Assembly (NCBI GenBank): GCA_964387675.1
Contig: CAYLWL010000004.1
Coordinates: 1 to 61,814, forward strand
Direction: 5' to 3'
DNA from: an uncultured Candidatus Saccharibacteria bacterium
Lineage (GTDB): Bacteria > Patescibacteriota > Minisyncoccia > UBA6257 > 2-01-FULL-56-20
DNA: 61,814 bases
Part shown: positions 7,992 to 43,515 of the stretch, piece after piece
Layout: every line of letters starts with the position of its first letter
Position numbering within the stretch: position 1 is the stretch's first letter
The notes under the pieces: generated by a model
Seen by the model: only the letters and a program-made list of their open reading frames with translations
Database searches by the model: none
Told to the model about the DNA's origin: nothing
Translations under genes and position numbers: made by a program

Positions 7992-8071
7992 AGACATGAG
8001 ATATGAGAAATGAGGAACGCCGAACTATTTCATTTCTCCCCCTCATCTCTCATTTCTAACTTCTCATATCT
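7992..8071. repeat. Mirrored heptamer-period tract (AGAYATG arm / CTCATYT arm)
   Basis: agacatg agatatg agaaatg ... ctcattt ctaactt ctcatat between infC and rpmI. Confidence 0.75.
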
Positions 8072-8077
8072 ATCATC

Positions 8078-8245
8078 ATGAAAAAAAGCTTATCAAAACG
8101 AATCCGAATAACGAGAACCGGAAAACTGATCCGACGCCCCATGGCGGTCGATCATTTCCGCACACGATCCACCGCAAAAAAGATCAGAGGAAAGAGAAAG
8201 TCGAGATCGATTGACTATTTGAGGAAAAAAATACTCAATTATTAG
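8078..8245 (+). CDS. rpmI: 50S ribosomal protein L35
   Basis: Below track cutoff. Manual translation MKKSLSKRIRITRTGKLIRRPMAVDHFRTRSTAKKIRGKRKSRSIDYLRKKILNY; position between infC and rplT. Confidence 0.88.
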   Translation: MKKSLSKRIRITRTGKLIRRPMAVDHFRTRSTAKKIRGKRKSRSIDYLRKKILNY

Positions 8246-8250
8246 CAAAA

Positions 8251-8318
8251 GGCCGAGGGCGAAGGGCAAAGAGATCGTTAGCGATATACCCTTAGCTCTC
8301 AGCTCTTTGCCCTTAGCC
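8251..8318. repeat. Mirrored heptamer-period tract (GGCRAAG arm / CYCTTWG arm)
   Basis: ggccgag ggcgaag ggcaaag ... cccttag ctctcag ctctttg cccttag between rpmI and rplT. Confidence 0.7.
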
Positions 8319-8326
8319 AATACACC

Positions 8327-8671
8327 ATGCCACGAGTCAAACGAGGAAAACACGCCCATAAACACCGGGAGAAACTCTTGAAACATACCAAGGGCTTCCG
8401 TTGGGGGCGCAAATCGAAAGAGCGGGCCGCGAAAGAGGCCTTACTGCACGCCTGGTCTCGCGCGTTCCGCGGCAGAAAAGAAAAGAAGAGGGTTTTCCGA
8501 CAACTTTGGAACGTCCAGATTAACGCGGCCTCCCGCGAGCACGGAACCAAATACAGCGCCCTCATATCCGCCCTCCAGAAAAAGAAAGTGAAAATAGATC
8601 GGAAGATGCTTGCCGAGCTCGCGAAAAACGAACCTGCCGTGTTCAAAAAGATTGTTGAATTTGTTCGTTAG
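8327..8671 (+). CDS. rplT: 50S ribosomal protein L20
   Basis: MPRVKRG, FRQLWNVQINAASR, IDRKMLAELA. Confidence 0.97.
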   Translation: MPRVKRGKHAHKHREKLLKHTKGFRWGRKSKERAAKEALLHAWSRAFRGRKEKKRVFRQLWNVQINAASREHGTKYSALISALQKKKVKIDRKMLAELAKNEPAVFKKIVEFVR

Positions 8672-9138
8672 CGCCGCCGCAGGATATAATCGTTCGCCTG
8701 TTTCAACACTTTCTTGGTAGATTCGTATTTGTTACCCAGGGCCTTGAGAGCGTCGGGATAGGTGAACCACGCGAAGCCGCTGTGCTCTCGGGGCAAGATG
8801 CGTATGTCGGCCCGCCTGGTTTCCGCAAGATACAAAATGACCGTATCATAAATCCCCTGCTTGCCTACCCGGAAATAAAACCGTTCATACGCCCTGAATC
8901 CGTGGATAATGCGCAGGTCGGATTTATGCAATCCCGTTTCCTCCCTCACTTCGCGGAGCGCGGTGTCGATGCTATTCTCGCCCGGTTCAAAATGGCCTTT
9001 CGGAAAATTCCAATATGTTCCCCGCCGGTACAAAAGAAGAAATTTAATGCCCTCGTGAGTGCGGCGATAGACCACAAAACCGGCGACGATCTGCTGTTTC
9101 ACATTTCTAACTCCGGACTTATATGGCGGTTTATCCAT
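8668..9138 (-). CDS. NUDIX hydrolase (Ap4A hydrolase-like)
   Basis: Nudix box WNFPKGHFEPGENSIDTALREVREETG. Confidence 0.9.
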   Translation of the reverse strand: MDKPPYKSGVRNVKQQIVAGFVVYRRTHEGIKFLLLYRRGTYWNFPKGHFEPGENSIDTALREVREETGLHKSDLRIIHGFRAYERFYFRVGKQGIYDTVILYLAETRRADIRILPREHSGFAWFTYPDALKALGNKYESTKKVLKQANDYILRRR

Positions 9139-9141
9139 GGC

Positions 9142-10893
9142 TTATTTCAAAGATTTTAACATTTTTAACATCTCCTCTAATGGCCAAGCATTGACAACAT
9201 CTCTCCGCTTTGCCCAGCCGCGCCTTGCTTGAGCGACACCGTACTCGAGATACGCAAAATGAGTCGGCGAATGGGCGTCGGAGTCGATGGACATTTTCAC
9301 GCCGGATGCAACGCACTTTCTCACATATTCGTCTTTCAAATCGAGCCGGTCGGGATAGGCGTCAATCTCCATAACGGTGCCCGTCTTTTTTGCCGCCGAA
9401 ATCAATTCGTCCATGTTGACCTCATAGGCCTCGCGCTTATTGATAATCCGGCCGGTCGGATGAAACAGTATATCGACGTGCGGATTTTCCATCGCTTTCC
9501 TAATTCTCTTAGTTTGCGCTTCGCGGGGCAAATTGAAATACGAATGCACCGAAGCCCCCACGATATCGAGCTTCGACAAAATCCTGTCGGGCAAATCGAG
9601 CGAGCCGTCTTTCAAAATATCGCATTCGCTTCCTTTCAAAATTTTTATTTTGCCGGCGAATTTTCTGTTCAGCCGATCGATTTCCGCCATTTGTTTCAAA
9701 AGCCGTTTTTCGTCCAATCCGTGTGTCATAGCAAGCCGCTTGGTGTGGTCAGTGATCGCAATATAGGCGAGGCCATGTCTGATTGCGGCTCGTGCCATAT
9801 GTTCAATCGAATCGGATCCGTCGGTCCAGTTCGTCTGCACCTGGAGATCTCCCCTTAAATCACCATACGCTATAAGTTTGGGGAGTTTGTGGTTTTTAGC
9901 GGCTTCGATTTCTCCGGTATTCTCCCGCATTTCCGGCTCAACATAATCCAGCCCCAACGCTTTATAAATTTCTTCTTCGGTTTCTCCGGCAACTATTTGC
10001 TCTTTGCCCTTTGCTATTCGCCATAATCCGTACTCGTTCAATTTATATCCTTTTTTCATCGCTATCTGCCGCAAAGCGACGTTATGGCTTTTGGAGCCGG
10101 TAAAATAGCTCAAGGCCGCGCCGTACGATTCCGGAGCAACCACGCGCACATCGACATCAAACCCGGATTTCATTTTCACGGCGGACTTGGTGGCTCCGTG
10201 CGCCAACACGCGAACAACTCCGGGCATCTTGGTAAAACGATCTATAGCTTCCAAGGCCGCTCTTTTTTCCTTTACCGTAACCAGGATGTCGACGTCGCCG
10301 ATCGTTTCTTTCATCCTCCGCGTGGAGCCGGCGACGACCAGTTTATCAACCCCATGAATCCGCCGAAGCCGATCCGCGATGGCTCTGATCTCGGGCATCA
10401 CAAACCCCAACACGAACCGCCCTTCGGATTTTTTCATAAAGCCGATCCCTTTCAAAATATTTTCTTCGCTCTTCTTGCCGAAGCCCTCGAGCTTGCCGAT
10501 ACGCCCGGCGAGCGCCGCCTTCTCCAAATCCTTCAAGTCCTTAATCCTCAGCTTTTCGTAAAGTTTCTTGATGGACTTCGGCCCCAAACCCTCAATCCCG
10601 CGAAGCTCGGCAAGATTGACCGGGGTTTCCTTTTTCAGTTTCTCGTAGTATTTGAGGCGGCCGGTTTTTATAAGCTCTTCGATTTTTTCTGCAATGGAGA
10701 CACCGACACCGGGAATGTCTTCGACTGCTCGTATGCCTCCTTTACGGTAGATTTCTCCGGCTTCTTCTTCTAATCCCTCAATCACGCCGGCAACCTTTTC
10801 GTACGCCCGTGGCTTGAAGGGCACGTCTTGCATCTCAAGATACGCCGCAATTTCGTAGAGTATTTCGGCTATCTGTTTATTAGAAATCGGCAT
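9142..10893 (-). CDS. polX: DNA polymerase X / PHP 3'-5' exonuclease
   Basis: HhH motifs, GSTRR, GDVDIL, YFTGSK.HN, C-terminal PHP domain (ITDH, HPTGR, DSDAH). Confidence 0.95.
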   Translation of the reverse strand: MPISNKQIAEILYEIAAYLEMQDVPFKPRAYEKVAGVIEGLEEEAGEIYRKGGIRAVEDIPGVGVSIAEKIEELIKTGRLKYYEKLKKETPVNLAELRGIEGLGPKSIKKLYEKLRIKDLKDLEKAALAGRIGKLEGFGKKSEENILKGIGFMKKSEGRFVLGFVMPEIRAIADRLRRIHGVDKLVVAGSTRRMKETIGDVDILVTVKEKRAALEAIDRFTKMPGVVRVLAHGATKSAVKMKSGFDVDVRVVAPESYGAALSYFTGSKSHNVALRQIAMKKGYKLNEYGLWRIAKGKEQIVAGETEEEIYKALGLDYVEPEMRENTGEIEAAKNHKLPKLIAYGDLRGDLQVQTNWTDGSDSIEHMARAAIRHGLAYIAITDHTKRLAMTHGLDEKRLLKQMAEIDRLNRKFAGKIKILKGSECDILKDGSLDLPDRILSKLDIVGASVHSYFNLPREAQTKRIRKAMENPHVDILFHPTGRIINKREAYEVNMDELISAAKKTGTVMEIDAYPDRLDLKDEYVRKCVASGVKMSIDSDAHSPTHFAYLEYGVAQARRGWAKRRDVVNAWPLEEMLKMLKSLK

Positions 10894-10896
10894 AGA

Positions 10897-10995
10897 TCCA
10901 AATCAAAGATCAAAAGTCAAAATGAAAGATTGAAAATGAAAAAATACTTTGAATTTTGCATTGTCATTTTAATATTTGATTTTTGATTTTTAATC
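10897..10995. repeat. Mirrored heptamer-period tract (CAAARAT arm / ATTTTTG arm)
   Basis: A-rich 7-nt-period arm and complementary T-rich arm upstream of polX. Confidence 0.7.
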
Positions 10996-11004
10996 TTCCC
11001 TAGT

Positions 11005-11649
11005 TCACAACGTCTTGTGATCTTGAATCACGGGTTTCGCGGCAGCTGCCTTCGGCAACACAATATCCGGCACCATAATAAGGATGAGGGCCGAAACAGC
11101 GGATAAAACTCCGACCGAAACAAAAACCGCCGAGAATCCAAGCCAGCTCGCGACTATGCCCCCCACAAGACCGCTCACTCCTGTCGCGATTCCGATTGCG
11201 GTGCTGTCCAGCGCCCAGTCAAAAGAGACCCGATCTTTATCAAGATGTCGCGAAAAAATTGACTGCCAAGAAACCGCGTACAACGCCAACCCCGCGGCGT
11301 GCAGGGCTTCCACGATATACACTCCGCCAGCCGTTTGCACCAGAACGAAAGCGAAGGCGCTTAGAGACGCGATAATCAAGCCAACGATGAGGGCGTAAAA
11401 ATCGTCTTTTTCTCCGTCCGTCCGATCCAAAAAACTTGCCAACGGCAACTGGATTACGGACCTCGTAATCCAATAGGTGGCCGCAGCGATACCTACCGTG
11501 ACCAATGTGGCGCCCGGAATCTGTTGAACTATAAAAACGGAAAAAACGGGGGACATCATGCCCCAGCCGCTCCAGAAAACAAGGTCACTGATGATAAAGT
11601 ACTTCACCAGGCGATTCACTTTTATGTCGATATTGATGTGGATGCGCAT
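11005..11649 (-). CDS. Half-size MFS transporter (about 6 TM)
   Basis: 214 aa, hydrophobic helices, MFS-like LASFLDRTDG loop. Confidence 0.75.
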   Translation of the reverse strand: MRIHINIDIKVNRLVKYFIISDLVFWSGWGMMSPVFSVFIVQQIPGATLVTVGIAAATYWITRSVIQLPLASFLDRTDGEKDDFYALIVGLIIASLSAFAFVLVQTAGGVYIVEALHAAGLALYAVSWQSIFSRHLDKDRVSFDWALDSTAIGIATGVSGLVGGIVASWLGFSAVFVSVGVLSAVSALILIMVPDIVLPKAAAAKPVIQDHKTL

Positions 11650-11655
11650 ACTGAG

Positions 11656-11717
11656 TAGATATTAGAAATTAGAGATGAGAAATTAGGTCGTTAAACGTTC
11701 CTAATGTCTCATGTCTA
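11656..11717. repeat. Mirrored heptamer-period tract (AGAAATT arm / CTAATGT arm)
   Basis: tagatat tagaaat tagagat gagaaat tagg ... cctaatg tctcatg tcta. Confidence 0.65.
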
Positions 11718-11726
11718 TTTTCTTTT

Positions 11727-14577: not shown

Positions 14578-14642
14578 AGGTTCATTATAACTGACCCTTA
14601 TAAAAGAAAGAAACGGCCCGTAGGAATACGGGCCTTGTTCTA

Positions 14643-16421: not shown

Positions 16422-16478
16422 GGAAACCTCCGTTTTTCAATCCTTCTGCGGTTAATGTACCGCTTGTCGGGGCGGAGG

Positions 16479-25025: not shown

Positions 25026-26345
25026 TCAATCGGCGACCCGATCATCTCGGGCCGCTTTTTTTAGCGTCTCCTCCACAACTTTTCTGTCGTTCCAGGAAAT
25101 TTTTTTGCCGTGGGCAACGTGGATAAAATCTTCGCTACCCTTTCCCGTAATAACCACCGTGTCCCCTTCCTTAGCAAGCGAAATTGCCTTGGAGATGGCT
25201 TCTTTTCTGTCGACGATTTTAAAAAGCTGGGACGGCGGCTTCAACTCTTCAAAACCTCTTGCAAGCTCTTCGACAATATCTCCGGGCTTCTCGTCGTACG
25301 GATCTTCGCTCGTGAGAATGACTTCGTCGCAGTATCCCGCGGCAATCTTTCCCATCACGGAACGCTTCCATTTGTCCCGCCCGCCCCCGGCCGCGCCAAG
25401 CACGCAGATGAGCTTAGAGACAAGAGCCGAGGGCGAAGAGCCAATTTCACCTTGCCCTTTGCTCTTTGCGATTTGCTCTCTTAAAAAATCATACACCTTT
25501 TTAAGGGAATCCGGCGTGTGGGCGTAATCCACAACGACGGAAAACGGCTCACGCGCCACAAACTCCATCCGGCCCGGCACGCCGTCGAATCCGCGCAATG
25601 CCTCTTTGATCGACTCTTCATCAATGCCGAGATCGCGCGCCACGACGATCGCGGAAGCGGCGTTATCTTGGTTGAAGTCGCTCGACAAAAATGGATTGTG
25701 GCTGTCCGCCGAAGACAGCAAGTTCCTCGTATTCGGATCGTTTCGTGAATATGTTTCCGCTCCGGACCCGCGAAGCTTCTCGGTGAAAAACTCGGAGTTT
25801 TTGTCGTCGCGATTGATAAACACCTTGCCTTTTCTTCGAAGCACGTACTCCAAAAAAGAAAGTTTTGCGTTTCGATAATTCTCGAAGGAGCCGTGCGACT
25901 CGATGTGCTCGGGCGCCAGATTCGTGAGCACTCCGACATTCCAAGAAATAAATCTGTGCCTCGAGCACGCTACGCCCTGCGACGTAACTTCTAGAAGCGC
26001 GTATGTGCATCCTGCCTTCACCGCCCTCCGTAAAAAATGCCTGATGTACGCGCGGCCGGGCATTGTATTGCCAAGCCGATTCTTCTCGCTCGTCTCGCCG
26101 ATTTTCACGCGCAAAGAAGAAAGCAAGGCGGTTTTTTTGCCGGCTTGCTCCAATATCGAATTCAAGAGCTCGAGCGTGGTCGTCTTCCCTTTCGTTCCCG
26201 TGATGCCGATCACGAAAAGCTTTTTGTCCGGCCGGCCATAGAGGATAACCCCGAAGAAAGCCCACAGATAATGATACAGCCACACCAGACCGGGCAGTTT
26301 ATACGCTTGTTGAACGACCGTGCTGTTTTTTATCTCATCAAGCAT
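25026..26345 (-). CDS. murE: Mur ligase, MurE-like (UDP-MurNAc-tripeptide synthetase)
   Basis: GITGTKGKTTT, EVTSQG, TNL.PEHIESH, VVVDYAHTPDSL. EDPY replaces DNPR, so the added amino acid is uncertain. Start ATG 26345 abuts the MITE. Confidence 0.88.
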   Translation of the reverse strand: MLDEIKNSTVVQQAYKLPGLVWLYHYLWAFFGVILYGRPDKKLFVIGITGTKGKTTTLELLNSILEQAGKKTALLSSLRVKIGETSEKNRLGNTMPGRAYIRHFLRRAVKAGCTYALLEVTSQGVACSRHRFISWNVGVLTNLAPEHIESHGSFENYRNAKLSFLEYVLRRKGKVFINRDDKNSEFFTEKLRGSGAETYSRNDPNTRNLLSSADSHNPFLSSDFNQDNAASAIVVARDLGIDEESIKEALRGFDGVPGRMEFVAREPFSVVVDYAHTPDSLKKVYDFLREQIAKSKGQGEIGSSPSALVSKLICVLGAAGGGRDKWKRSVMGKIAAGYCDEVILTSEDPYDEKPGDIVEELARGFEELKPPSQLFKIVDRKEAISKAISLAKEGDTVVITGKGSEDFIHVAHGKKISWNDRKVVEETLKKAARDDRVAD

Positions 26346-26619
26346 AGAACCCATCTCGAAAGTATCTTCAGCCGCGATACGAGCCAATTTCGGCTGACGC
26401 AAGGAGCGAGGACGAAGGTGTATCCCTAGATACTCCGAGTCCGAAGCGACACAGCGACAGGTGAAATTGGCCGTATCCCTTCGGGTTTTCGCTATTTTCC
26501 CGCTCCGCTGCGTTGCACCTTCGTCGGAGTACCAATGGGTACACCTTCCTCGTCGCGCCTTGCGGAGCGGAGAAAATATCAGAAAACGCGGCTTGAAGCA
26601 TACTTTTGAGATGGGTTCT
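26346..26619. mobile_element. MITE-like element family A, copy 1 (274 bp)
   Basis: Terminal inverted repeats AGAACCCATCTCGAAAGTAT / ATACTTTTGAGATGGGTTCT (19/20); internal sequence homologous to 48584-48855 in reverse orientation; no transposase. Confidence 0.8.
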
Positions 26620-26625
26620 GGTCAT

Positions 26626-28553: not shown

Positions 28554-31821
<3,268 letters not shown>

Positions 31822-31826
31822 CTGAC

Positions 31827-32963
31827 CTACGGCGCCACTTCTTTCAGTTTGCCTCCTGTCCACTCAAAGGCGCGGATGGTTGTGTTGTAGGAGTTTGACC
31901 CGCCACTGCCGGAACAGCTCAAGGTATAAGTCGTGTCTCTGTCCGCGGAAACGTTGGCGCTTCCGCTACTGCCCACAGAACCGACGCCGGATATACTGCA
32001 GCCGAAATTGGCGTTCACACAAGACCACGACAAAGTAATGTTTCGAGGCGGAGGGATAAGAATCCTGTCCGGTGACGCCGAGAAACTGCTACAGGAAGCG
32101 GGGGGCGGACAAGGAGGACCAGTCCGACTGCAACCATTGTCGCAACTATCCCTGCCATAGGTAGTTTCTCCGCAGGCCGGTGTTGACGCGTCGCAACCGC
32201 CAGCGCTACAGAAATTGTCGCCGCCACCGCCACCGCCACCGCACAAGGCAGAGATCATGCGACCCTCGTCTCCAGGATTGTCTGCCAGGAAGCGATCTTT
32301 CTCTTCTTGCGACGGGTTGCAGCCACCACTATTGCCGCCGTTGTTATTGTTATTATTATTATTGTTGTTGTTGCTACCACCGCAGTTTCCGGGTCCCGCG
32401 CTACTCCAAGTGCGGTCGGAACCGCAAACGTAATCGTAGCCATTCACACAGTTCCTTCTGTCTCCGGGAGTGCAGCCGGACACTGGACCTGGACAACGAG
32501 GTTGGCCCGGGTCACCGCATTGCGGCGGCCTTGGACAATCACCGCGCTCTTCGCAGGTGGTAGTTGGACAATCACCGCGCTCTTCGCAGGTGCTAGAACG
32601 GGGGCAATCACCACGCTCTTCGCAGGTAAGCTGGGTGGGAGAGGGCGTGGGCGTGGAGCCGCCGCCGCAAAATCCATTTAAACGTACCACGCAGGCGGTA
32701 ACCACCCCTGCGACCATATCTAGTGCCATAATAGCTCCTACAACCCCGCTCGCCGGTATTGTTGCCGGAATGAGAGTAGCTAAGGCCGGCGCCGCAAATA
32801 CAGCCACCACCACCACGACAGCTACTACCGCAACAACTTTAGCCAAGCCCTTGAAAAACCCTCCAAAAGAGAAAGCGTAAGCCGGTTGAGGGAAAACAAC
32901 CAAAACCACCAGCATAAATATAAGGGAGGCCACAAACGCGCTACGAAAATGCTTCATTTGCAT
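31827..32963 (-). CDS. Secreted Cys-rich surface protein with TCEERGDCP repeats, poly-Asn tract and C-terminal Ig-like domain
   Basis: Signal peptide ending AYA, hydrophobic segment, 3x TCEERGDCP, N10 run, F.ASP...TL.WS...C...TTYTL.C tail. Start 32963 or 32957. Confidence 0.75.
   Translation of the reverse strand: MQMKHFRSAFVASLIFMLVVLVVFPQPAYAFSFGGFFKGLAKVVAVVAVVVVVAVFAAPALATLIPATIPASGVVGAIMALDMVAGVVTACVVRLNGFCGGGSTPTPSPTQLTCEERGDCPRSSTCEERGDCPTTTCEERGDCPRPPQCGDPGQPRCPGPVSGCTPGDRRNCVNGYDYVCGSDRTWSSAGPGNCGGSNNNNNNNNNNNGGNSGGCNPSQEEKDRFLADNPGDEGRMISALCGGGGGGGDNFCSAGGCDASTPACGETTYGRDSCDNGCSRTGPPCPPPASCSSFSASPDRILIPPPRNITLSWSCVNANFGCSISGVGSVGSSGSANVSADRDTTYTLSCSGSGGSNSYNTTIRAFEWTGGKLKEVAP
32531..32627. 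repeat. Intragenic tandem repeat, 3 units of 33-36 nt
   Basis: CAATCACC(G/A)CGCTCTTCGCAGGT x3, encoding TCEERGDCP. Confidence 0.85.
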
Positions 32964-33059
32964 ATGGAATAATTGTAACAAAACAAATCTATCATTGAAA
33001 TAGACCGTGCCTGTGGATATCTTCGCGGGATATCTTGGCTTAATATGGGAAGAAAGACG

Positions 33060-33092
33060 TAAAAAAACGCCCCGGACGAACTTCGTCCGGGG
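33060..33092 (-). terminator. Rho-independent terminator inside the pilin region
   Basis: CCCCGGACGAA-G-TTCGTCCGGGG followed by CGTTTTTTT on the minus strand. Confidence 0.75.
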
Positions 33093-33114
33093 ACTGTGCC
33101 TAACTCGGCGGCCC

Positions 33115-33606
33115 TCACCATCGCAGGTGGTACGCCGCGGCCGCGCTGTTCTTGCCGACCGCGAATCCAACCTGACGATTCGCCTCCCTGCTTCCCCGCC
33201 GCCACTCCACGATACCGAAGCCAGCCAGAGTTCCTCCGCCAACGGCAAGCCCGTTAGCGATCAGGCCTTTCGTCCGATCGGCGCTGGAGCACTCTTGCCG
33301 CTCCAGACAACCTGCCGATTCAGTTGCGCCAACGACAGCCCCGCCGACGCCGATTGCGAGGCCCCAGAAGACCATCTTCTTGCCTCTCGCCTTCCTGGCG
33401 AGCGCCTTCTCGCGCGCCGACGCCCTATCCTGCGCCGACGTCGCTTGCGCCGTTGCGGACGCAAGCGCTTCCGACGGAACAACGAGCGACAACAGCGGCT
33501 GCGCCGTTGCGGTCGCCGCAGGCGCACTCCCATCATCCGCCGCGCTCACCGTGCCCGCACAGAGCAACGCGGCGAGCATAGACCCGACGAGAATCTTCAT
33601 TCTCAT
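33115..33606 (-). CDS. Hypothetical exported/membrane protein (GC-rich)
   Basis: ATG 33606 or 33600 after a purine-rich RBS; signal peptide; two Gly-rich hydrophobic helices. Confidence 0.65.
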   Translation of the reverse strand: MRMKILVGSMLAALLCAGTVSAADDGSAPAATATAQPLLSLVVPSEALASATAQATSAQDRASAREKALARKARGKKMVFWGLAIGVGGAVVGATESAGCLERQECSSADRTKGLIANGLAVGGGTLAGFGIVEWRRGSREANRQVGFAVGKNSAAAAYHLRW

Positions 33607-34243: not shown

Positions 34244-34789
34244 TTAACCGTCGAGCGTCCGCGCGCTCACGGTCGTTTCTATGCGCAGAACGGTCGCGGA
34301 GGCGCCCCGCTCTTTCGAAGAAACGCCTAAAGATACGGTAATTCTCGGGGGCCAGCCGTCACCGCTTTGGTTGCCTCGCAAAAGAAAGCTCATGTCTTTG
34401 ACTACGACGTTCCCGCCCGTAATTTGCTGGAATGTCCCCGCTACGCCCCGCTCGATGGAGACATCGCTCAACCGATACGCTATCGTTTCGCCCGCGGCGT
34501 TCGTGAATATAAACTCGTTTGAGCCGGAACAAAGAGGATTGCCGTTCGCGTCGTGGCAAAAGTTGTAACCGGTTCTTATTTCTCTTGCCATCTGTTCCAA
34601 CGCCAAACTAATGCCGTTCTCGGCCGCGATCAAGCCGGCGATCTGCCGTTGGGCCCCCAATGACTGGATAAAACCGCCGACGGCAATACTCACAATCGCG
34701 AGAAAAAGCCCGACAGCGACGATGAGCTCGACGAGGGTGAACCCTTTACGAGTATCTAGTATCTGGTATCTGGTATCTAGGAACTTCAT
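34244..34789 (-). CDS. Minor type IV pilin (PilW-like)
   Basis: KG|FTLVELIVAVGLF N-methylation motif. Confidence 0.88.
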   Translation of the reverse strand: MKFLDTRYQILDTRKGFTLVELIVAVGLFLAIVSIAVGGFIQSLGAQRQIAGLIAAENGISLALEQMAREIRTGYNFCHDANGNPLCSGSNEFIFTNAAGETIAYRLSDVSIERGVAGTFQQITGGNVVVKDMSFLLRGNQSGDGWPPRITVSLGVSSKERGASATVLRIETTVSARTLDG

Positions 34790-34802
34790 ATATTAAGTAT
34801 CC
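34743..34802. repeat. 60-bp direct repeat, copy A (pilin leader and upstream region)
   Basis: Identical to 35303-35362; a second 34-bp block 34808-34841 is identical to 35399-35432. Confidence 0.92.
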
Positions 34803-34839
34803 AGTATCTAGATTCTAGTTTCTAGATACTAAATTCTCA

Positions 34840-35349
34840 TTACGGTCTAAAGTTCAAAAAGTGGTCTTCCAGGTTCACGCTCGACTTGGCAAGCCCGCTC
34901 GTCCAAGAAACAACGGAGTTCACCGCGATTTCGTCGGAATCAACAAGCGTGATCCTAACCCTCCTTTGAAATGGCGTCGGAGCGCCGCTCTCTTCATAAC
35001 CATAGAGGTTGGTTATGGGGTTGAAATACAAACTTCTGCCGGCATACGCGGAAAGGGCGATGCTTGACCAGTCAACTTCAAAGTCCCCGGTCGAAAAACC
35101 GCTCGACCACGAAGCCCCGGCAATCGCGTTGTGATCCAGTATGTTTTTTACGACCTCAATGCCTTCTGCCGCAAGATACGTGGCAAGAACATTGTCGGCA
35201 ATAATGCGGTTCGCGCGCAGTGAACTCGCAAGGAGAGTAAAAATTCCCAGAAACCCGGCAATAAGCACGCTGATCGCGACGATTGCCTCGACAATGGTCT
35301 GGCCTTTACGAGTATCTAGTATCTGGTATCTGGTATCTAGGAACTTCAT
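34840..35349 (-). CDS. Minor type IV pilin (PilV-like)
   Basis: KG|QTIVEAIVAISVL; A..LA.EGIE.V motif. Confidence 0.85.
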   Translation of the reverse strand: MKFLDTRYQILDTRKGQTIVEAIVAISVLIAGFLGIFTLLASSLRANRIIADNVLATYLAAEGIEVVKNILDHNAIAGASWSSGFSTGDFEVDWSSIALSAYAGRSLYFNPITNLYGYEESGAPTPFQRRVRITLVDSDEIAVNSVVSWTSGLAKSSVNLEDHFLNFRP

Positions 35350-35362
35350 ATATTAAGTATCC
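35303..35362. repeat. 60-bp direct repeat, copy B
   Basis: Identical to 34743-34802. Confidence 0.92.
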
Positions 35363-35431
35363 GATATCTAGAATCTGGCAACCAATAAACGGCGAATACT
35401 AGATTCTAGTTTCTAGATACTAAATTCTCAT

Positions 35432-36010
35432 TCAAAAGTCCACTTGGCCCGAAGAGTTGATGGTTATCGTTCTTTTGGCCTGGCCATCGTTCGTTTCGAG
35501 ATACACCTTGACCGGCGAACCGGTGAGCGACGCTCCCCCGTCGACGCTCAAGAGGGTCTTGGGATTCGGCGGCACGAACAACAGCACGCTCAAGCTATCC
35601 GCGTCCGCGTTCCTCAAAACCAAACCGGGGGCAACCGTATATGAGGAAATGGTCTTCCGGAAACCGGAGGGAATAGCGGCGAGAGAGGCGCAGTTCGGAG
35701 GATTCGGTTCTTCGTAGGTATACAGCGAGTATGTTTTTTGTGAATAATCGATTTCCATCCCGAAACCGCAGGTGTTGGGATTTCCGTCTTTCAACGCGCC
35801 GAGCGCGGAGGACTTCGCCCGAAAAATCACGTTGGCCATTTTTTGGGTTTCGACATACAAAGAAACCTGCCGCTCGCCGGTTTTGCTGTACGTTATCGCA
35901 AGCGCCGAAAGAAGCGCGGTAATGGATATGGCGACTAAAATTTCTATGACCGTAAAACCCTTGCGGGAACAAAGAAACTTCGTATGAAAATCCTGTCTTC
36001 CTGTTGCCAC
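35432..36010 (-). CDS. Minor type IV pilin (FimT/GspH-like)
   Basis: KG|FTVIEILVAISIT; C-terminal I.INSSGQV; start uncertain. Confidence 0.83.
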   Translation of the reverse strand: MATGRQDFHTKFLCSRKGFTVIEILVAISITALLSALAITYSKTGERQVSLYVETQKMANVIFRAKSSALGALKDGNPNTCGFGMEIDYSQKTYSLYTYEEPNPPNCASLAAIPSGFRKTISSYTVAPGLVLRNADADSLSVLLFVPPNPKTLLSVDGGASLTGSPVKVYLETNDGQAKRTITINSSGQVDF

Positions 36011-36036
36011 ATTCTCTATTCTACTACATTTACGTT

Positions 36037-36885
36037 CTATAATCCGAACAATCCGAAATATGCCCTCATCAGCTGGTGCCCGAAGAAAAATACGATAACC
36101 GATGACCCCGCGAGAAACGGGCCGAAAGGAAGATGGCTCTTGAGTGTTTTTTCTTTCGAAAATATTTTATAGATTCCGAAAAACGCGCCGATCACAAATG
36201 CCAACCCGACGACGAAGATCGTATCCGGCCAGCCGAAGATCAAGCCCAAAGGAACGGCCAACTTCAAATCCCCCGCCCCCATACCCCTGCCACGAGTTAT
36301 AAAAATCAGCGCCAGAAAAAAGAGGCCGGCGAGCAATACTCCTAAGGCGTGATTCAGCCAGACATTATCGCGGAACCCGAACAGGGGCGCGTAGGGTTCG
36401 AAAAAGGATTCGTACGTCAGTCCGAACGCCGGTCCGCTTACAAAAATCAAGAGCGCTCCCAAAACAAAAAGAGCGATATTCAATTCGTCGGGAATGATCG
36501 AGAGCCGGAGATCAATCAAGGCAATAAGAAGAAGAACGATAAAAATCAGAATCCAAACCGTAGAGAGAATAGAGAATAGAGAATAGAGAATAAAGGGGGT
36601 GTAGACGCGAAACGGAACGAAAACGAACGTTAGGCCGCTTAAGATTTCGACGATCGGATATTGCATATTTAACGCTCCCCGGCAACTCCGGCAACGCCCG
36701 AGCTGGAGCATAAAACTCACAATCGGTATGAGTTCGAACCACCGGAGAGTTTTCCGGCACCGAGGACAATGCGATCTGCCCAAAAGAGAGGAGCCGAACA
36801 CAAATCGTTCGGGATGGTAACGCAAGGAGACTACGTTCAAGAAACTTCCCATCGAAGCGCCGAAGACGAAAAGCAGAAAAGACAT
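36037..36885 (-). CDS. pilD: Prepilin peptidase
   Basis: GSFLNVV..R, RSHCPRC, GRCRSC, MGAGDLKL, LPFGPFL. Confidence 0.95.
   Translation of the reverse strand: MSFLLFVFGASMGSFLNVVSLRYHPERFVFGSSLLGRSHCPRCRKTLRWFELIPIVSFMLQLGRCRSCRGALNMQYPIVEILSGLTFVFVPFRVYTPFILYSLFSILSTVWILIFIVLLLIALIDLRLSIIPDELNIALFVLGALLIFVSGPAFGLTYESFFEPYAPLFGFRDNVWLNHALGVLLAGLFFLALIFITRGRGMGAGDLKLAVPLGLIFGWPDTIFVVGLAFVIGAFFGIYKIFSKEKTLKSHLPFGPFLAGSSVIVFFFGHQLMRAYFGLFGL
36564..36591. repeat. Perfect (AGAGAAT)4 heptamer tract inside pilD
   Basis: Four identical 7-nt units; read as ILYSLFSILS on the minus strand. Confidence 0.9.
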
Positions 36886-36892
36886 TTTTAGT

Positions 36893-37038
36893 TGAATAAA
36901 GAATTAAGAATTAAGAATAAGGAATGATGGACGGGGAATGAGGAATAAAGAATAGAGAATAACGTAACGGCAATTTATTCTTAATTCGTTATTCATTATT
37001 CTATAACCTTTATTCTTTATTCATTATTCGTTATTCTA
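36893..37038. repeat. Large mirrored heptamer-period tract (AGAATAA arm / TTATTCT arm)
   Basis: About 70-nt purine arm and about 65-nt complementary arm between pilA and pilD. Confidence 0.8.
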
Positions 37039-37108
37039 GTTTTGATTTTAACCAAAAAACCGCCCCGATGTAAATCAAAGCGGCTTTCTGAATCGGGGCA
37101 ATAAGTCC

Positions 37109-37609
37109 CTACAGTTGCGCGCAATAGACCGGATCGTTGCATTCCACGCCGTTCACCGTGCCGTCCACATCTTGCGCCAACCCGGAATTGCCGGCGTCTT
37201 CAAGCCGCGCGCCAAGAACATAGCTCGCGCCGCCAGCCGTGGCGCCGTAAAAGTAATGCGAACCGGCCGTGGGATCATCGGGAACGTTCGATATCCCCAA
37301 GTTACTGCCGACCAAAGAACTGGCAAGATTTTCCCAGGTCGAGATCGCGCTAAACGAACCGCAGGGACTCGACGCTTGCGCCGTACCCGGGTAATAACCG
37401 CACTTGTTAAAGTAAAGCTCAAGCCCGTTCTGCACCTGCCGCAAATCGCTGATACGCCTCGAGTCCCTCCCCAAACGCCTCGTGGGACCCAAGCCGACCA
37501 AAACCACCGAAGAAAGAATCGCCACAATCGCGACCACGATGAGCATTTCGATCAACGTAAAGCCCTTGCGGGAACGAAGCGTGGAAAATCGTGAATAAAA
37601 AAATTTCAT
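37109..37609 (-). CDS. Major type IV pilin candidate (PilA/GspG-like)
   Basis: KG|FTLIEMLIVVAIVAILSSVVL, RD.RRISDL..VQ.GLELY..YP, C-terminal Cys pair. Confidence 0.88.
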   Translation of the reverse strand: MKFFYSRFSTLRSRKGFTLIEMLIVVAIVAILSSVVLVGLGPTRRLGRDSRRISDLRQVQNGLELYFNKCGYYPGTAQASSPCGSFSAISTWENLASSLVGSNLGISNVPDDPTAGSHYFYGATAGGASYVLGARLEDAGNSGLAQDVDGTVNGVECNDPVYCAQL

Positions 37610-37656
37610 GTGTATGTTTGTTAAAAGTATTACTTCAACAGTATACCATATCGCGG

Positions 37657-38880: not shown

Positions 38881-38971
38881 GTAGTATTCGCGAATAATGC
38901 TAATTGTTAGGTAATAACGCGAATGTATTAGCATTATTTGCTGGTATTCGCGTTATTAGCGATTACTCCGC

Positions 38972-40045: not shown

Positions 40046-40050
40046 AAGTT

Positions 40051-40172
40051 AATTCAAAATTCAAAAATCAAAGTTCAAAATGACAATGCAAAGTGTAAAA
40101 AAAGTGGTAAATTATAAAGTCGTGTCCGCAGGACTCCTAAACTTTGCATTTTGATCTTTGCATTTTGCATTA
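40051..40172. repeat. Mirrored heptamer-period tract between pilB and pilT
   Basis: aattcaa aattcaa aaatcaa agttcaa ... tttgcat tttgatc tttgcat tttgcat. Confidence 0.75.
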
Positions 40173-40180
40173 TGAATTAA

Positions 40181-41902
40181 TTATACATCTTCCGTCTCCC
40201 GTATCACCTCTTCCATCGAGACCTTTCCATCAAGGGCCTTGAGCACGCCGTCTTGGCGCAACGTTGACATTCCCTGGTTCTTGGCCTCTTTCAATATCTT
40301 TTGGATGGTAACTCCGCCGTTGATCGCTTCCTCGAGGACGGGCGTCATCATAAACACCTCGAAAAGCGCTTCGCGGCCGATCGTTCCCCGCCCCTTGCAC
40401 TTGCCGCAGCCCGCGCTTCGATATATCTTATATGGCTCCTTGTATTTGGAACGAACCTCTTCCGGCAAATCACCCAGCGCTTTTCTGATTAATTTATCAA
40501 CCGGGGGCGGCGCGTCGTCGGAACGCTTGCAGTCGGGGCATAGCATCCCGACCAATCGCTGGGAAACCATGAGATTCAAAGAAACCGGCAACAAGAACGG
40601 TTCCACCTTCATGTCGATAAGACGCGGGATAACGCCCGCGGCGTTATTCGTGTGCAAGGTCGAAAGGACGATGTGTCCCGTAAGCGCCGCTTGCACGGCG
40701 AGCGATGCGGTCTCGTTGTCGCGAATCTCGCCCACCATGATCGTATCGGGATCTTGCCGCAATATCTGCCGCAAGCCGGAGGCAAAATCATAACCGATCT
40801 CCGGCCGCACCTGCGACTGATTGACGCCAGAAATGAAATATTCCACCGGATCCTCCAAGCTCACGATATTCACGCTTTCCTTGTTCAACTCTTGGAGCAT
40901 GGCGTAGAGCGTGGTGGTCTTCCCCGATCCGGTGGGACCGGTTACCAGAATCATCCCGAATGGCTTTTCGAGGCCCTCCTTCACGATCTCCGCATTCTTG
41001 CCCACAATATCCAAGTCTTTGAAGTTCTTGATGCCTGTCGTCGGATCCAAAACTCTGATAGCTACTTTTTCTCCCAGCGGAGTCGGGAACGTAGAAACGC
41101 GGAAGTCGATGTCCTTATCGAACACCCTGGTCCGAAAACGGCCGTCTTGAGGAATCCTGGTTTCGTCTATTTTTAAGCTGGAAATAACTTTAACCCTCGA
41201 TATGACCGGCTGTGAAAGTTCCGTGGGGAGCGCGGCCACCTCTCGCAGATCCCCGTCAACCCGGAATCGTATCCGCAAATAATTTTCCTGCGGCTCGATG
41301 TGAATGTCGGATGCCCGTTCCAACACGGCCTCCCGCAAGGTGTTCGCGACGATTTTAATGATGGGGGCCTCTTCTGCCGCGCCTCCTTCTTCAAGGCGCA
41401 CGATTTTCTGCCCGCCCTCTCCTCGTTTCAAACTTAACGACCGAACCGCCGCCTCGACTTCCGTGCGATACGGAGAATATTTCCGAAGCGCCCCTTGCCA
41501 ATCGCCATATGAGATAAGGTACACCCCAAGATTCAATCTGCCTCGGCGGGCGATAAACTTCACCGCCTCCTGGGCTTTCGTGTCATCGGGATTTACCATT
41601 CCCACGACAAGCAAATTCTCTTTTTTTTCGAGAGGGGCGACTTCGTAGGTTCTTGCCGTTTCTTCCGGAATCAATTCCAACGTTTCGCTCGCGAGCGATT
41701 CCGCGTCGACTTTCTTGTACGGTATCTTGAGAGCCGCGCTTTTCACCTCGGCAACCTTGCGATCATCAACCAACCGCTGGTTCGCGATCAGCTGCTCGAC
41801 CGACTTGCCCGAAAGCAGCGACTCGCGCTTCAGCTTCGTCACAACGTCTTCGTCCAGGAGGCCTGCTTTCTGGATTTCTTTTAAAAGATCTTCGGAGGAC
41901 AT
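40181..41902 (-). CDS. pilB: Extension ATPase PilB (GspE family)
   Basis: ASDIHIEP, PQDGR, GPTGSGKTTT, LRQDPD, CPDC/CGKC zinc motif. Confidence 0.95.
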   Translation of the reverse strand: MSSEDLLKEIQKAGLLDEDVVTKLKRESLLSGKSVEQLIANQRLVDDRKVAEVKSAALKIPYKKVDAESLASETLELIPEETARTYEVAPLEKKENLLVVGMVNPDDTKAQEAVKFIARRGRLNLGVYLISYGDWQGALRKYSPYRTEVEAAVRSLSLKRGEGGQKIVRLEEGGAAEEAPIIKIVANTLREAVLERASDIHIEPQENYLRIRFRVDGDLREVAALPTELSQPVISRVKVISSLKIDETRIPQDGRFRTRVFDKDIDFRVSTFPTPLGEKVAIRVLDPTTGIKNFKDLDIVGKNAEIVKEGLEKPFGMILVTGPTGSGKTTTLYAMLQELNKESVNIVSLEDPVEYFISGVNQSQVRPEIGYDFASGLRQILRQDPDTIMVGEIRDNETASLAVQAALTGHIVLSTLHTNNAAGVIPRLIDMKVEPFLLPVSLNLMVSQRLVGMLCPDCKRSDDAPPPVDKLIRKALGDLPEEVRSKYKEPYKIYRSAGCGKCKGRGTIGREALFEVFMMTPVLEEAINGGVTIQKILKEAKNQGMSTLRQDGVLKALDGKVSMEEVIRETEDV

Positions 41903-41906
41903 AGGG

Positions 41907-41967
41907 TGTCACGCGTCATACATCAGGCATCAGGATTTCTTGACGCTTGATACTTGACGCTTGATGC
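41907..41967. repeat. Mirrored heptamer-period tract (CATCAGG arm / CTTGAYG arm)
   Basis: catcagg catcagg ... cttgacg cttgata cttgacg cttgatg. Confidence 0.7.
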
Positions 41968-42264
41968 TTAAGGACTGAACGGATTCGACTTTCCCGCGTT
42001 GCCCGGCCTGGGCGGAGTTACATATTGTTTGAGCGCTTGAAATTCCTCGCCGCTTATCACCTCTCCCGGATTCAGGTTGATACCGGCCAGAGGATCGATA
42101 CTTTTACCCTGAAGATTGGAAGGCACCACCACTTCTATGAGCTGGGGTTGCGCGAAGAAAATATAATAACCGGCAACCGCTATGATAAGAAGAATCAAAA
42201 ACCACATAATGATTCTCACCACCTTACTCGTCCCGTTTCCTCCTTCCTCAACGATAATAGCCAT
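41968..42264 (-). CDS. Small TM-anchored protein of the pil operon (PilP position)
   Basis: One TM, C-terminal GKSNPF; located between pilO and pilB. Confidence 0.7.
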   Translation of the reverse strand: MAIIVEEGGNGTSKVVRIIMWFLILLIIAVAGYYIFFAQPQLIEVVVPSNLQGKSIDPLAGINLNPGEVISGEEFQALKQYVTPPRPGNAGKSNPFSP

Positions 42265-42266
42265 AG

Positions 42267-42866
42267 TTATTGTTCCTGATGGTACGTTGCGACCGACACA
42301 TCGTACGCGTAAGGGGTTTGGACAAACTTGCCCCCCGATATCGCGCCCGGTTGAATAGACAAAGACCGGAGGTCGAAAACTCTCATATTCGTTTCTAGTC
42401 GGGCAAGAAACGTTTTCAGGTCTCCGTATGATCCCGCGAGCTTCATTTGGAAAACGGACGTGCCTATCGGCCGCGTGACAAGGCCGCCTCTTGTTTCTTC
42501 CGCGCTTTTGATTCTTTGCGCGCCGGCGCCGCCCGCGAGAGATACCGACTGCAAGCTCAATCCGCTGTTTTGAACCAATCCGTACAGTTGGGCGAGCGCT
42601 CCAACCGCGTCCTCTCCTTCGGGAAGAGCCAACGAAACTGCCTGTCTCAAGTCGCCCTGGCCGCGATAGTCGCTAATCAAACTCTGCACTTTTGTTATCG
42701 CTTGTTTTTCGCTATTCAACAAATTCTCCAAACTCAAACCTTCCGCTTTTAATTTTTGGGCATCCTCATATACCGGTTCAATAAAATCGAAATAGACGAT
42801 AATGGCCCCCACCAGGAATATCAAGCCCAAAATCATGCTAAGAAATCTTTTGGTTGTTTGCCTCAT
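42267..42866 (-). CDS. pilO: PilO-like alignment protein
   Basis: N-terminal TM, coiled coil, GSY..LK.FL..LE...R.FD motif. Confidence 0.8.
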   Translation of the reverse strand: MRQTTKRFLSMILGLIFLVGAIIVYFDFIEPVYEDAQKLKAEGLSLENLLNSEKQAITKVQSLISDYRGQGDLRQAVSLALPEGEDAVGALAQLYGLVQNSGLSLQSVSLAGGAGAQRIKSAEETRGGLVTRPIGTSVFQMKLAGSYGDLKTFLARLETNMRVFDLRSLSIQPGAISGGKFVQTPYAYDVSVATYHQEQ

Positions 42867-43441
42867 GGTTGTGTTGTCGTGGCGGCCGCAAGGCCGGAAC
42901 GGCTGAAATACCCTTCCTGAAACAGCAAGGTGGCCTCGAAACGCCAGACGCCCTCGGAAAAAGAAATATTGCCGGGAGCAACTCGCGCGACCTCCGGTTG
43001 CGATTGAAAAAGAACGAACTGCTGATTGATGTCGTCCATTGTCTTCGCAACGCCGCCCAGCGCGAGTTGGTTCGTTTGGGTGTTGAGGTTAAATTTATTA
43101 AAGTAAATATTCACCTGGGTATTCCTCTCGAGCGAGGAAAATAGCTGCGAAGAAAAAATATGTTTCGCGAGCGCCGTCTTCAAGTTATAGATTTGGGAAT
43201 AAAAGTTCACTATCCTTTTTTGATCCTCCGCCGGTATCTGCTGGCTGAAAACCGCGGCTTGACCCCGTAATTTCTGCAAATTGGAATTGAGATACACCGT
43301 ATAACCGAACGCAAGGCCGAAATAAATCACCAAACTGATAAAAAATATTGTTCCGGAGAACATCAAAACCTGACCGGCCCAACCGGGAGTTTTTGCCGGC
43401 TCGCGGCCAAGTTGTTCGATTACTTTTGGAGGTAGTGCCAT
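42863..43441 (-). CDS. PilN-like alignment protein
   Basis: N-terminal TM, ferredoxin-like tail; located between pilM and pilO. Confidence 0.7.
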   Translation of the reverse strand: MALPPKVIEQLGREPAKTPGWAGQVLMFSGTIFFISLVIYFGLAFGYTVYLNSNLQKLRGQAAVFSQQIPAEDQKRIVNFYSQIYNLKTALAKHIFSSQLFSSLERNTQVNIYFNKFNLNTQTNQLALGGVAKTMDDINQQFVLFQSQPEVARVAPGNISFSEGVWRFEATLLFQEGYFSRSGLAAATTTQP

Positions 43442-43445
43442 TTTG

Positions 43446-43515
43446 TGTCAGGTGTCAGGCGTCAGGTGTCAGGTATTTATATTTACTCTTGATACATGAC
43501 ACTTGATACTTGGCA
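43446..43515. repeat. Mirrored heptamer-period tract (TGTCAGG x4 / CTTGAYA x4)
   Basis: tgtcagg tgtcagg cgtcagg tgtcagg ... cttgata catgaca cttgata cttggca. Confidence 0.8.

Follow-up and report, generated by a model that had tools for sequence, protein, structure and literature searches.

In this study we show that a 61,814-nt stretch of DNA (contig CAYLWL010000004.1; hereafter the window) carries short tandem arrays with a 7-nt period in its operon spacers and inside its genes. In the spacers the arrays stand, with one exception, in complementary arm pairs that fold as hairpins, and within genes they are single and in frame. Their units belong to a limited set of families, the spacer hairpins were gained in particular lineages, and they bear no signature of the mRNA strand. 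The explanation we favour, to which we give an even chance, is that they are heptanucleotide arrays similar to the short tandemly repeated repetitive (STRR) sequences of cyanobacteria, which slippage and template switching would generate in the DNA itself, and which would evolve in concert, be copied between loci and be mostly neutral. Slippage with template switching as the generator, and the neutrality, are the parts of this reading that we infer. The best matches of the window's PilB are metagenome-assembled genomes of Paceibacteria/Patescibacteria (73-78% identity), and judging by its sequence the host is a Paceibacteria-like bacterium of the candidate phyla radiation (CPR; Patescibacteria).

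The period-7 tracts are real and statistically overwhelming. When 21-nt stretches were required to have at least 17 self-matches at a given lag, with mono- to trinucleotide runs left out, the window yielded 18 tracts at lag 7, six at lag 14 and a single one at lag 6; lags 4, 5, 8-13 and 15 gave none, and neither did lag 7 in 20 first-order Markov shuffles of the window. Of the 28-nt windows 110 passed at lag 7, whereas lag 6 gave 8 and lag 8 none. Tandem Repeats Finder (TRF) returned 53 rows for the window, about half of them with period 7 or its multiple 14, including the arms listed by an initial annotation of the stretch. A reverse-complement partner lies no more than 160 nt from every intergenic tract tested (scores 20-41, against a null mean of 14.4 and a 95th percentile of 20), and on either strand every window hairpin folds far more stably than its dinucleotide shuffles (z -2.1 to -8.7). 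Over 5.3 kb of the pil operon an independent Logan assembly agrees with the window at 100% identity, and the hairpins are therefore not an assembly artefact. The initial annotation had claimed an excess at lag 7, complementary mirrored arms and the greatest density in the pil operon, and all three are borne out, the last by seven of the eleven hairpins lying within 34.2-44.6 kb. Eight of the nine sites to which it assigned period 7 have that period by TRF, at the site or adjoining it, but 38881-38968 has a period of about 9. Two hairpins, one partner-less array and about ten arrays inside open reading frames (ORFs) had escaped it, the last being the most important omission, and some period-7 arrays fall outside the range it covered (4058-4081, 53014-53173 and 57949-57982).

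The hairpins are numbered H1 to H11 along the window, the minus strand being the mRNA sense for nine of the eleven. Together with the partner-less spacer array they are as follows.

7991..8072, H1: arms 7991-8014 and 8049-8072, AGAYATG family, directly upstream of rpmI (plus strand).
8251..8318, H2: only about three imperfect GGCRAAG units per arm, between rpmI and rplT.
10894..10991, H3: arms 10894-10942 and 10948-10991, WTCAAAR family, between the genes for PolX and an MFS protein.
11656..11723, H4: AGAAATK family, between the MFS gene and the ClpB gene.
31800..31829, minus strand: partner-less array of about 4.5 RTCARRY units, directly 3' of the stop codon of ORF 31827-33248.
34743..34846, H5: AGTATCT/AGATWCT units, found by TRF and as inverted pairs; the 3' arm (mRNA sense) encodes the prepilin leader MKFLDTRYQILDTRKG.
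35303..35432, H6: paralogue of H5, found by TRF, preceding the neighbouring pilin-like paralogue (ORF 34840-35349).
36893..37037, H7: about ten AGAATAA and about nine TTATTCT units, between the major pilin gene and pilD; the largest hairpin.
38881..38968, H8: inverted repeat with a period of about 9, not 7, between pilT and pilC.
40049..40180, H9: WTCAAAR/GCAAAAT units, found by TRF, between pilB and pilT.
41907..41969, H10: RYRTCAG and CTTGAYR units, found by TRF, filling the spacer upstream of pilB.
43445..43517, H11: (GTGTCAG)4 and (CTTGATAC)-type arms, found by TRF, filling the pilM-pilN spacer.

TRF assigns period 7 to H1, whose arms are 83% complementary and which folds with z of -4.0 and -4.7 on the two strands; H2 has a minimum free energy of -34.3 kcal/mol (z -4.8, plus strand). 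The genes at 8078-8671, rpmI and rplT, lie on the plus strand, and H1 and H2 are therefore not part of the minus-strand operon. In H3 TRF counts 5.6 and 6.4 copies, and an inverted pair was found; H4 has 4.4 copies and z of -5.5 and -6.4. The 3' arms of H5 and H6 both take in the start codon and the codons of the leader peptide, that of H6 likewise encoding MKFLDTRYQILDTRKG. H7, with 9.9 and 9.1 copies and several inverted pairs, reaches z of -5.2 and -6.6. H8 folds, but TRF finds period 9 at 38926-38961 and its lag-7 fraction of 0.30 is not elevated. An inverted pair of 34 nt at 85% was found in H9 (z about -4.9), and z is -5.2 and -6.0 in H10. The two arms of a hairpin are homogenised separately, which leaves one fixed mismatch per unit; in H11, comparison of the arms reveals it every 7 bp, with CAAG x4 facing CAGG x4.

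Two side observations concern these spacers. A canonical terminator-like stem with a U run (37045-37095, minus strand) directly follows the major pilin gene and is itself followed at once by H7. The arms of H5, H6, H7 and H9 (34812-34840, 35403-35431, 37023-37074 and 40180-40207) contain -10-like hexamers TAGAAT, TATAAT and TAAAAT; promoter-like sites from such hexamers number 16 against 9.3 expected, and TAGAATN-type units are also common in relatives.

The same period prevails among relatives, for which we sampled the surroundings of pilB homologues in 80 GTDB species, 1.32 Mb in all (loci are given as L-numbers). Lag-7 tracts number 105 in this sample, while lag 6 gives 16 and lag 8 gives 21, and in relatives and window together TRF finds 258 arrays of period 7 against 75 of period 6 and 104 of period 8. 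The outcomes that the initial annotation had named as refuting it, absence of a lag-7 excess over shuffled controls or equally frequent periods 6 and 8, were thus seen neither in the window nor in the relatives. The tracts are unevenly distributed, being dense in L023, L028, L031, L029, L037, L054 and L070 and absent from many others. Array density is about 10-fold higher in intergenic DNA than in ORFs, and the arrays are A/T-rich (27% G+C vs 45% for the genomes), with a mean match of 83-86%. A partner arm accompanies 49% of the intergenic and 2% of the intragenic arrays of the relatives, and all intergenic tracts tested in the window; the loops between arms vary from 20 to 60 nt. In L003 and L029 the arm-loop-arm architecture is built from octamers, GCTTACGA and GCTAACGA, which occupy the pilM-pilN and orf98-pilB spacers of L003 and the orf98-pilB and pilM-pilN spacers of L029. 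Two genomes have one octamer family in common, which is similar to the heptamer CAGCTAA found in L028.

Comparison of operons tells how the hairpins came to be where they are. The pil operon, pilM-N-O-orf98-B-T-C-pilA-D with three minor pilins, is syntenic in about 35 relatives, and in most of these the orthologous spacers measure -4 to 20 nt. In the window and in L002, L023, L028, L029, L031 and L083, all array-rich genomes, they measure 60-240 nt and are filled by repeat-armed hairpins. Since the orthologous spacers are tiny in most relatives, the hairpins are lineage-specific gains and not conserved parts of the operon. L023 also has arrays in operon spacers that lack a partner arm. Matches of about 2.5 kb to PilB in relatives, considered as a possible pilB insertion, were only cross-hits between PilB and PilT. 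In the pil-operon spacers of L082, L008, L010 and L083 we noted other recurring, G+C-rich dispersed palindromes, e.g. motifs like ATCCCGTTAGAAG or GGGAATGAC...GTCATTCCC; CPR operon spacers thus appear to host several kinds of small palindromic elements.

On shorter time scales there is less to compare. The sole other contig with the window's PilB is 100% identical, and the next nearest in the metagenome scan stands at 76-78%. In the few near-identical, array-bearing pairs among the relatives we saw no array indels, and differences, if any, only at contig ends. The arrays are therefore not hypermutable on such a time scale and are not contingency loci; unit-number polymorphism between close strains, the mark of phase-variable contingency simple sequence repeats (SSRs), was not seen in these few pairs.

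Are the mirrored tracts made for the mRNA? One possible explanation is that they are selected intercistronic mRNA stem-loops, which would stabilise or process the polycistronic mRNA, attenuate transcription, or couple translation by drawing the stop codon of one gene and the start codon of the next close to each other, and so tune the stoichiometry of pil and ribosomal proteins. Their folds are very stable and take up almost all of the spacer between stop and start codon; start and leader codons are part of the 3' arm in H5 and H6; and related families occupy orthologous spacers of the window, L002 and L083. Stems of 28-60 bp would also be plausible RNase III substrates. Like roles have been proposed for cyanobacterial STRR hairpins (PMC2670836). 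We compared sense and antisense folding energies of pil-operon spacers, for which the sense strand is known. Ordinary non-periodic structured spacers favour the sense strand (71 vs 33), as expected if G.U pairs are tolerated in functional RNA. Unlike these hairpins of the same operons, the 36 heptamer hairpins have no strand bias (16 sense vs 18 antisense, Wilcoxon p = 0.31), and in the window several hairpins, among them H7 and H11, fold much better antisense (H7 -44.8 vs -30.0 kcal/mol; H11 -38.6 on the plus vs -20.1 kcal/mol on the minus strand). This argues against selected mRNA stems, as do the near-zero spacers at equivalent sites of most relatives, the spacer arrays of L023 without a partner arm, the identical array types in coding regions and the lack of a terminator signature: a scan with the terminator consensus gave 16 sites against 16.2 expected, none of them a heptamer hairpin, and the arms are A/T-rich. 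In Rfam only two tRNAs of the window reach the gathering score, and no hairpin has a match. Because there is no strand bias, because most relatives lack the hairpins and because arrays occur in genes, we regard the mirrored tracts as DNA-level palindromes with incidental RNA consequences. We consider selected mRNA stems unlikely, and we find no support for the tuned intercistronic stems that the initial annotation had put forward as a possibility.

Two further candidate signs of strand preference were discarded. Better folding of the antisense strand, seen in 7 of 8 window hairpins, is gone in the relatives (18 vs 16). G.U enrichment on the mRNA strand, as a sign of RNA selection, fails in the window, where the minus strand of the hairpins has 33 G.U pairs against 50 A.C mismatches, and the relatives are balanced.

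The arrays inside genes, all on the minus strand and in frame, are the following.

4058..4081: CTTGTCA x3.4 in the GAPDH gene, without partner arm (TRF, Pfam).
9996..10014: TTTGCCC x2.7 in the PolX gene, a short array (TRF, Pfam).
25452..25479: TTGCTCT x4 in a Mur ligase gene (TRF, Pfam).
29574..29607: CCTTGAC x4.9 in the LigA linker before the BRCT domain, encoding KVKGQGLS (TRF, ortholog alignment).
29767..29797: CTGATGT x3.3 in the LigA HhH linker, encoding LDIRHQTS (TRF, alignments).
30876..30905: GGTAGTA x4.3 in a loop of the LigA adenylation domain, encoding PTTYNLQPT (TRF, alignment to 2owo).
36564..36592: AGAGAAT x4.1, TRF match 100%, in a hypervariable loop of PilD, the prepilin peptidase (ortholog alignment).
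53014..53044: TTTTGAT x4.4 in the C-terminal region of IleRS, encoding KIKNKKSKIK (TRF, alignment).
53143..53173: GCTCTTT x4.4, perfect (TRF match 100%), in IleRS, encoding SKEQRAKSKE (alignment).
57949..57982: GCTCTTT x5 in ArgRS, encoding KANGKEQRAKS (TRF, alignment).

Their partner-arm scores of 10-14 mean that none has a partner. Each 7-nt unit is read in all three frames and gives 7-residue repeats, e.g. KEQRAKS or TSDIRHQ, and among 53 intragenic arrays of at least 3.3 copies in the relatives there is not one in-frame stop; 11 of the 53 are perfect. Certain protein segments are struck repeatedly. One hypervariable loop of PilD bears an array in each of five genomes (the window, L029, L023, L028 and L026), these arrays being independent and built of different units, and in a homolog search with a 174-aa C-terminal LigA query, many Patescibacteria orthologues have three-frame heptamer peptides (FNFQFSI, EIRNSKF, NGKWQMA) in two flexible linkers. 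At the DNA level one orthologue has perfect (GGCAAAT)x4.7 and (AAATGGC)x5.0 arrays in both linkers and another has (GAAATTC)x4.9; being perfect, the linker arrays are young. The array at 30876..30905 lies in an insertion relative to E. coli LigA, and the IleRS arrays are nearly length-neutral against a solved homologue. Slippage by a single unit would shift the frame of an essential gene, and the arrays must therefore arise or turn over by three units at a time or by length-neutral conversion.

The units of the window fall into about six families.

AGAAATG: window sites 7992 and 11656.
RGCAAAG: 8251, 9996, 25452, 53143 and 57949.
WTCAAAR: 10897, 40051 and 53014.
RTCARG: 29574, 29767, 31800, 41907 and 43446.
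AGAATAA/AGAGAAT: 36893 and 36564.
AGTATCT: 34751 and 35311.

Whole hairpins have paralogues as well, H1 with H4, H3 with H9, H10 with H11 and H5 with H6. H3 and H9 have a 32-nt stretch in common (28 identical fixed bases and 4 ambiguity positions) with variant units in identical order, and H6 is nearly identical to H5 across 74 nt. The initial annotation's statement that each tract has a different unit thus holds only in part, and its picture of a period that is always 7 and independent of sequence does not hold strictly, given these recurrent families with their paralogous copies and the 8-nt units of L003 and L029. Sharing of units between loci is modest in the 62-kb window (10 vs 6.1 in a composition-matched null; 21/300 shuffles) and clearly exceeds that null in L023, L028, L031 and L037; the relatives hold 100 distinct units in 170 arrays. 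A single family, (AGGTKTT)~4-loop-(AAMACCT)~4, occupies at least six spacers of L083, where its loops are unrelated to one another, the pilM-pilN spacer of L002 has the AGGTKTT/AAMACCT family as well, and the 3' arms of H10 and H11 (CCTGACA) are one base off it. The presence of related families in the window, L002 and L083 indicates either that they have persisted for long under concerted evolution or that related units have spread repeatedly. An amplified Shine-Dalgarno sequence as seed of the AGGTKTT family was rejected, the Shine-Dalgarno-like arm being the one far from the start codon.

Repeated spread could also be the work of a transposase. REP (repetitive extragenic palindromic) and REPIN elements are marked by a conserved sequence and a RAYT transposase, and Rickettsia palindromic elements (RPEs) lie in frame at protein surface loops, inserted as whole palindromes. 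The window arrays resemble both in being small, dispersed intergenic palindromes, and resemble RPEs in lying in frame within genes; unlike RPEs the intragenic arrays have no partner arm, and unlike REPINs no RAYT goes with them in the window, where no ORF matches Y1_Tnp. If the hairpins were non-autonomous elements similar to REPINs or to miniature inverted-repeat transposable elements (MITEs), with arms of iterated 7-nt motifs spread in trans, the intragenic arrays would be decayed half-sites. The preserved order of variant units in the window paralogues (the 32-nt match of H3 and H9; H1 with H4; H10 with H11), the single family in at least six spacers of L083, unit sharing above the null in L023, L028, L031 and L037 and the patchy spread among relatives all speak for such elements. 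However, genes of the Y1/RAYT and IS200/IS605 types and for reverse transcriptase are absent from the window, whose one transposase is of IS1595 type; the loops of family members are unrelated in sequence; and we recognised no target-site duplications or defined termini. What the members of a family share is their arms, and in the window each family has only two copies. Relatives do have short 'empty' spacers of the kind expected for MITEs, but with PilB identity of at most 76% they are too diverged to define ends or duplications. The 100 distinct units in 170 arrays fit poorly as well, and intragenic arrays that are in frame, single-armed and in some cases 100% matched are unlike decayed insertions. 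We therefore hold an origin from mobile elements to be quite unlikely.

For the reading we prefer, the course of events could be as follows. Slipped-strand misalignment or template switching during replication or repair would prefer a 7-nt register (8 nt in some relatives), and a short A/T-rich seed would be amplified to an array of typically about four units. Concerted evolution within arrays and copying between loci would then lead to a handful of unit families per genome. In compact operon spacers the inverted array pairs would form imperfect palindromes with arms of 30-70 nt, probably made or maintained by intrastrand template switching, and would inflate spacers that measure -4 to 20 nt in relatives. 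In genes only single, in-frame, stop-free arrays would survive, in tolerant loops, linkers and leader peptides. Effects on the mRNA, such as an intercistronic stem or a masked start codon, would be a by-product and not the cause of the arrays.

Several observations weigh against this course of events. Whether in hairpin arms, in partner-less intergenic arrays or in coding arrays, copy numbers have their mode at 4-4.5 units, with no geometric decay. Period-8 arrays also peak near 4 copies, and perfect arrays with 4-4.9 copies outnumber those with 3-3.9 copies by 12 to 5; in imperfect arrays the mode is partly a detection effect and in perfect ones it persists weakly, so that we take it as suggestive only. 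Stepwise slippage by plus or minus 7 nt would break the reading frame of essential genes on the way to four copies, and the perfect LigA arrays leave the linker no longer than in orthologues without heptamer-like linker peptides. Local seeding is insufficient where one unit occurs at two sites of a single gene (L162) or at six or more spacers of the L083 operon. In L058 and L140, which are 99.8% identical, there are 0 gaps in arrays. Of 42 heptamer hairpins in all data, 29 have the purine/A-rich arm on the 5' side and 4 have it on the 3' side, a strong strand-symmetric polarity. A related family at orthologous spacers of the window, L002 and L083, where PilB identity to the window is only about 74%, could mean constraint; together with stems that span from stop to start codon and, in H5 and H6, cover the start codon, it keeps a functional reading alive. 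The 4-copy mode, the unit shared by two sites of one gene and the length-neutral coding arrays hint that simple stepwise slippage is not the whole story.

Some of these points would be accounted for by a dedicated templated-addition or repair activity, PolX or another enzyme, that reiteratively copies a 7-nt template as it fills gaps or mends breaks at hairpins, adding about three units per event, directly or by snap-back. Such an activity would fit the common mode in all array classes, the perfect arrays (12 vs 5), the period-8 arrays near 4 copies and the length-neutral perfect arrays of the LigA linkers, and an addition of three units is the sole step that keeps the frame; moreover, the PolX gene (9142-10893) adjoins H3 and carries an array of its own. 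On the other hand, there is no direct evidence for any enzyme, and one anecdotal case of adjacency is all that speaks for PolX. Detection accounts for part of the 4-copy mode in imperfect arrays, H7 has 9-10 units, homogenisation within arms implies ongoing turnover at the unit level, and heptamers are in excess in many phyla with different repair repertoires (PMC4692102). We consider a dedicated activity of this kind very unlikely. A related, doubtful conjecture, to which we would assign a rather low probability, is that a process of Patescibacteria, possibly enzyme- or template-driven, writes arrays of about four 7-nt (sometimes 8-nt) units in a single step, from a genome-specific pool of units, directly or by snap-back. 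It would target operon spacers and tolerant protein linkers, overwriting without change of length. If this were true, it would be an unrecognised mutational mechanism that creates palindromes and continually remodels the linkers of LigA, IleRS, ArgRS, PilD and the pilin leaders, and a tractable system to ask why 7 nt is favoured in prokaryotes.

The 7-bp register, the direct and inverted arrangements, the few families per genome and the -10-like hexamers TAGAAT and TATAAT in the arms would also suit arrays of 7-bp protein-binding sites, bound cooperatively by a small dimeric protein. Plasmid pSM19035 offers a model for this, with its ribbon-helix-helix omega repressor and the heptad operators of that protein. 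Omega heptads have no tandem copies in the window, however, and there are too many different units, arrays inside essential coding regions, variable loops of 20-60 nt and no identified candidate binding protein; binding arrays are in our view extremely unlikely.

How do the arrays compare with known heptanucleotide repeats? Cyanobacterial STRR units are CCCCAGT, TTGGTCA and CAACAGT. No tandem copies of these STRR1-3 units, of TAACTGA, of GGGAATC or of GGGGAYT occur in the window. The window arrays nevertheless have the features of STRR-type sequences, i.e. tandem 7-nt iteration above chance that is mainly intergenic and often hairpin-forming, and as in cyanobacteria there are short arrays at many intergenic sites, with frequent inverted sets that can form intercistronic hairpins; like the STRRs, they appear to belong to several families per genome. 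Unlike the STRRs of filamentous cyanobacteria they occur in Patescibacteria, have many more unit types, lie in frame in essential enzymes and have octamer counterparts in relatives. They therefore work like STRRs and heptanucleotide SSRs but stand outside the named cyanobacterial families. In cyanobacteria, STRR 7-bp repeats form hairpins between hupS and hupL, for which transcript stability or translational coupling was proposed (PMC2670836). As related in PMC4692102 and PMC4679880, Mrazek et al. (2007) found heptanucleotides to be the most abundant long simple repeats in most prokaryotic genomes and, in the same accounts, slippage was proposed, 7 nt being the stretch held by the polymerase. 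The GGGAATC repeats of Xanthomonas and GGGGAYT repeats of Nostoc are intergenic and sometimes inverted (PMC4692102), and those of TAACTGA, known from Beggiatoaceae and cyanobacteria, are translated in some instances (PMC4679880). With these SSRs our arrays have in common the preference for period 7 over 6 and 8, the mostly intergenic location, some inverted pairs and slippage as proposed origin. They differ in that the SSR-bearing genomes are large with one or few units, whereas here the genome is small and compact, relatives together have about 100 unit types, about half of the intergenic arrays are partnered and the mode is near 4.

The tandem repeats of Borgs, which make protein segments (PMC9879509), are likewise locally unique and A/T-rich, lie between genes and in ORFs and yield low-complexity peptides; partial flanking repeats suggest seeds, and whether they arise by slippage or otherwise is debated. 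Borg repeats in ORFs are perfect, with units divisible by 3, in contrast to a 7-nt unit read in three frames, mostly imperfect (about 84% match) and commonly in inverted arm pairs. The parallel with STRRs drawn by the initial annotation is thus apt, but the phenomenon had already been described (PMC4692102, PMC4679880, PMC2670836), and 'unknown' fits its mechanism only. Our searches of the literature brought up no description of heptamer arrays in CPR/Patescibacteria. What is new here are the many families, the arm pairing at about half of the intergenic arrays, the octamer equivalents and the in-frame arrays at hot-spots of essential enzymes.

Other features of the window were noted along the way. 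The IleRS ORF (52640-56209, minus strand, 1189 aa) holds a complete His_Phos_1 domain at residues 527-687, inside the catalytic tRNA-synt_1 region, an unusual fusion or insertion. At 50490-52587 (minus strand) an IS1595-family DDE transposase gene (51615-52298) lies between two AAA+ fragments, an 89-aa match to the Torsin/AAA N-terminus (52318-52587) and a Clp-type AAA_2 with D2-small domain (50490-51599); this looks like an AAA+ gene interrupted by an IS1595 insertion sequence. An identical perfect 36-bp palindrome, TTTCCGTTATAACATAAT|ATTATGTTATAACGGAAA, occurs at 6048-6083 and at 48466-48501, 42 kb apart, with 0 expected; it is not heptamer-periodic and could be the operator of a shared regulator or another dispersed element. 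The longest inverted repeat of the window, with 74-nt arms that are 70% complementary and 19 nt apart (26398-26564), overlaps a small ORF (26368-26625). A 33-nt tandem repeat at 32531-32627 (2.8 copies, 87% match) encodes an 11-residue peptide repeat within the 473-aa ORF 31827-33248, which has no Pfam match.

To our knowledge the heptanucleotide excess of prokaryotes has been an open question since 2007, and the cyanobacterial STRRs have gone unexplained since 1990. Here the same phenomenon is found in ultra-small, compact CPR genomes, where extra bases are conspicuous: spacers of 60-240 nt stand where orthologous ones measure -4 to 20 nt, and 7-nt arrays in essential enzymes must have arisen without frameshifted intermediates. 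The mechanism is strongly constrained by the need to stay in frame, by the 4-copy mode, by the arm-specific homogenisation and by the recurrence at protein hot-spots with different units, and these loci offer natural 'before and after' states to set slippage against templated synthesis. For those who annotate CPR genomes or predict their structures, inflated intergenic regions and low-complexity peptide segments are to be expected.

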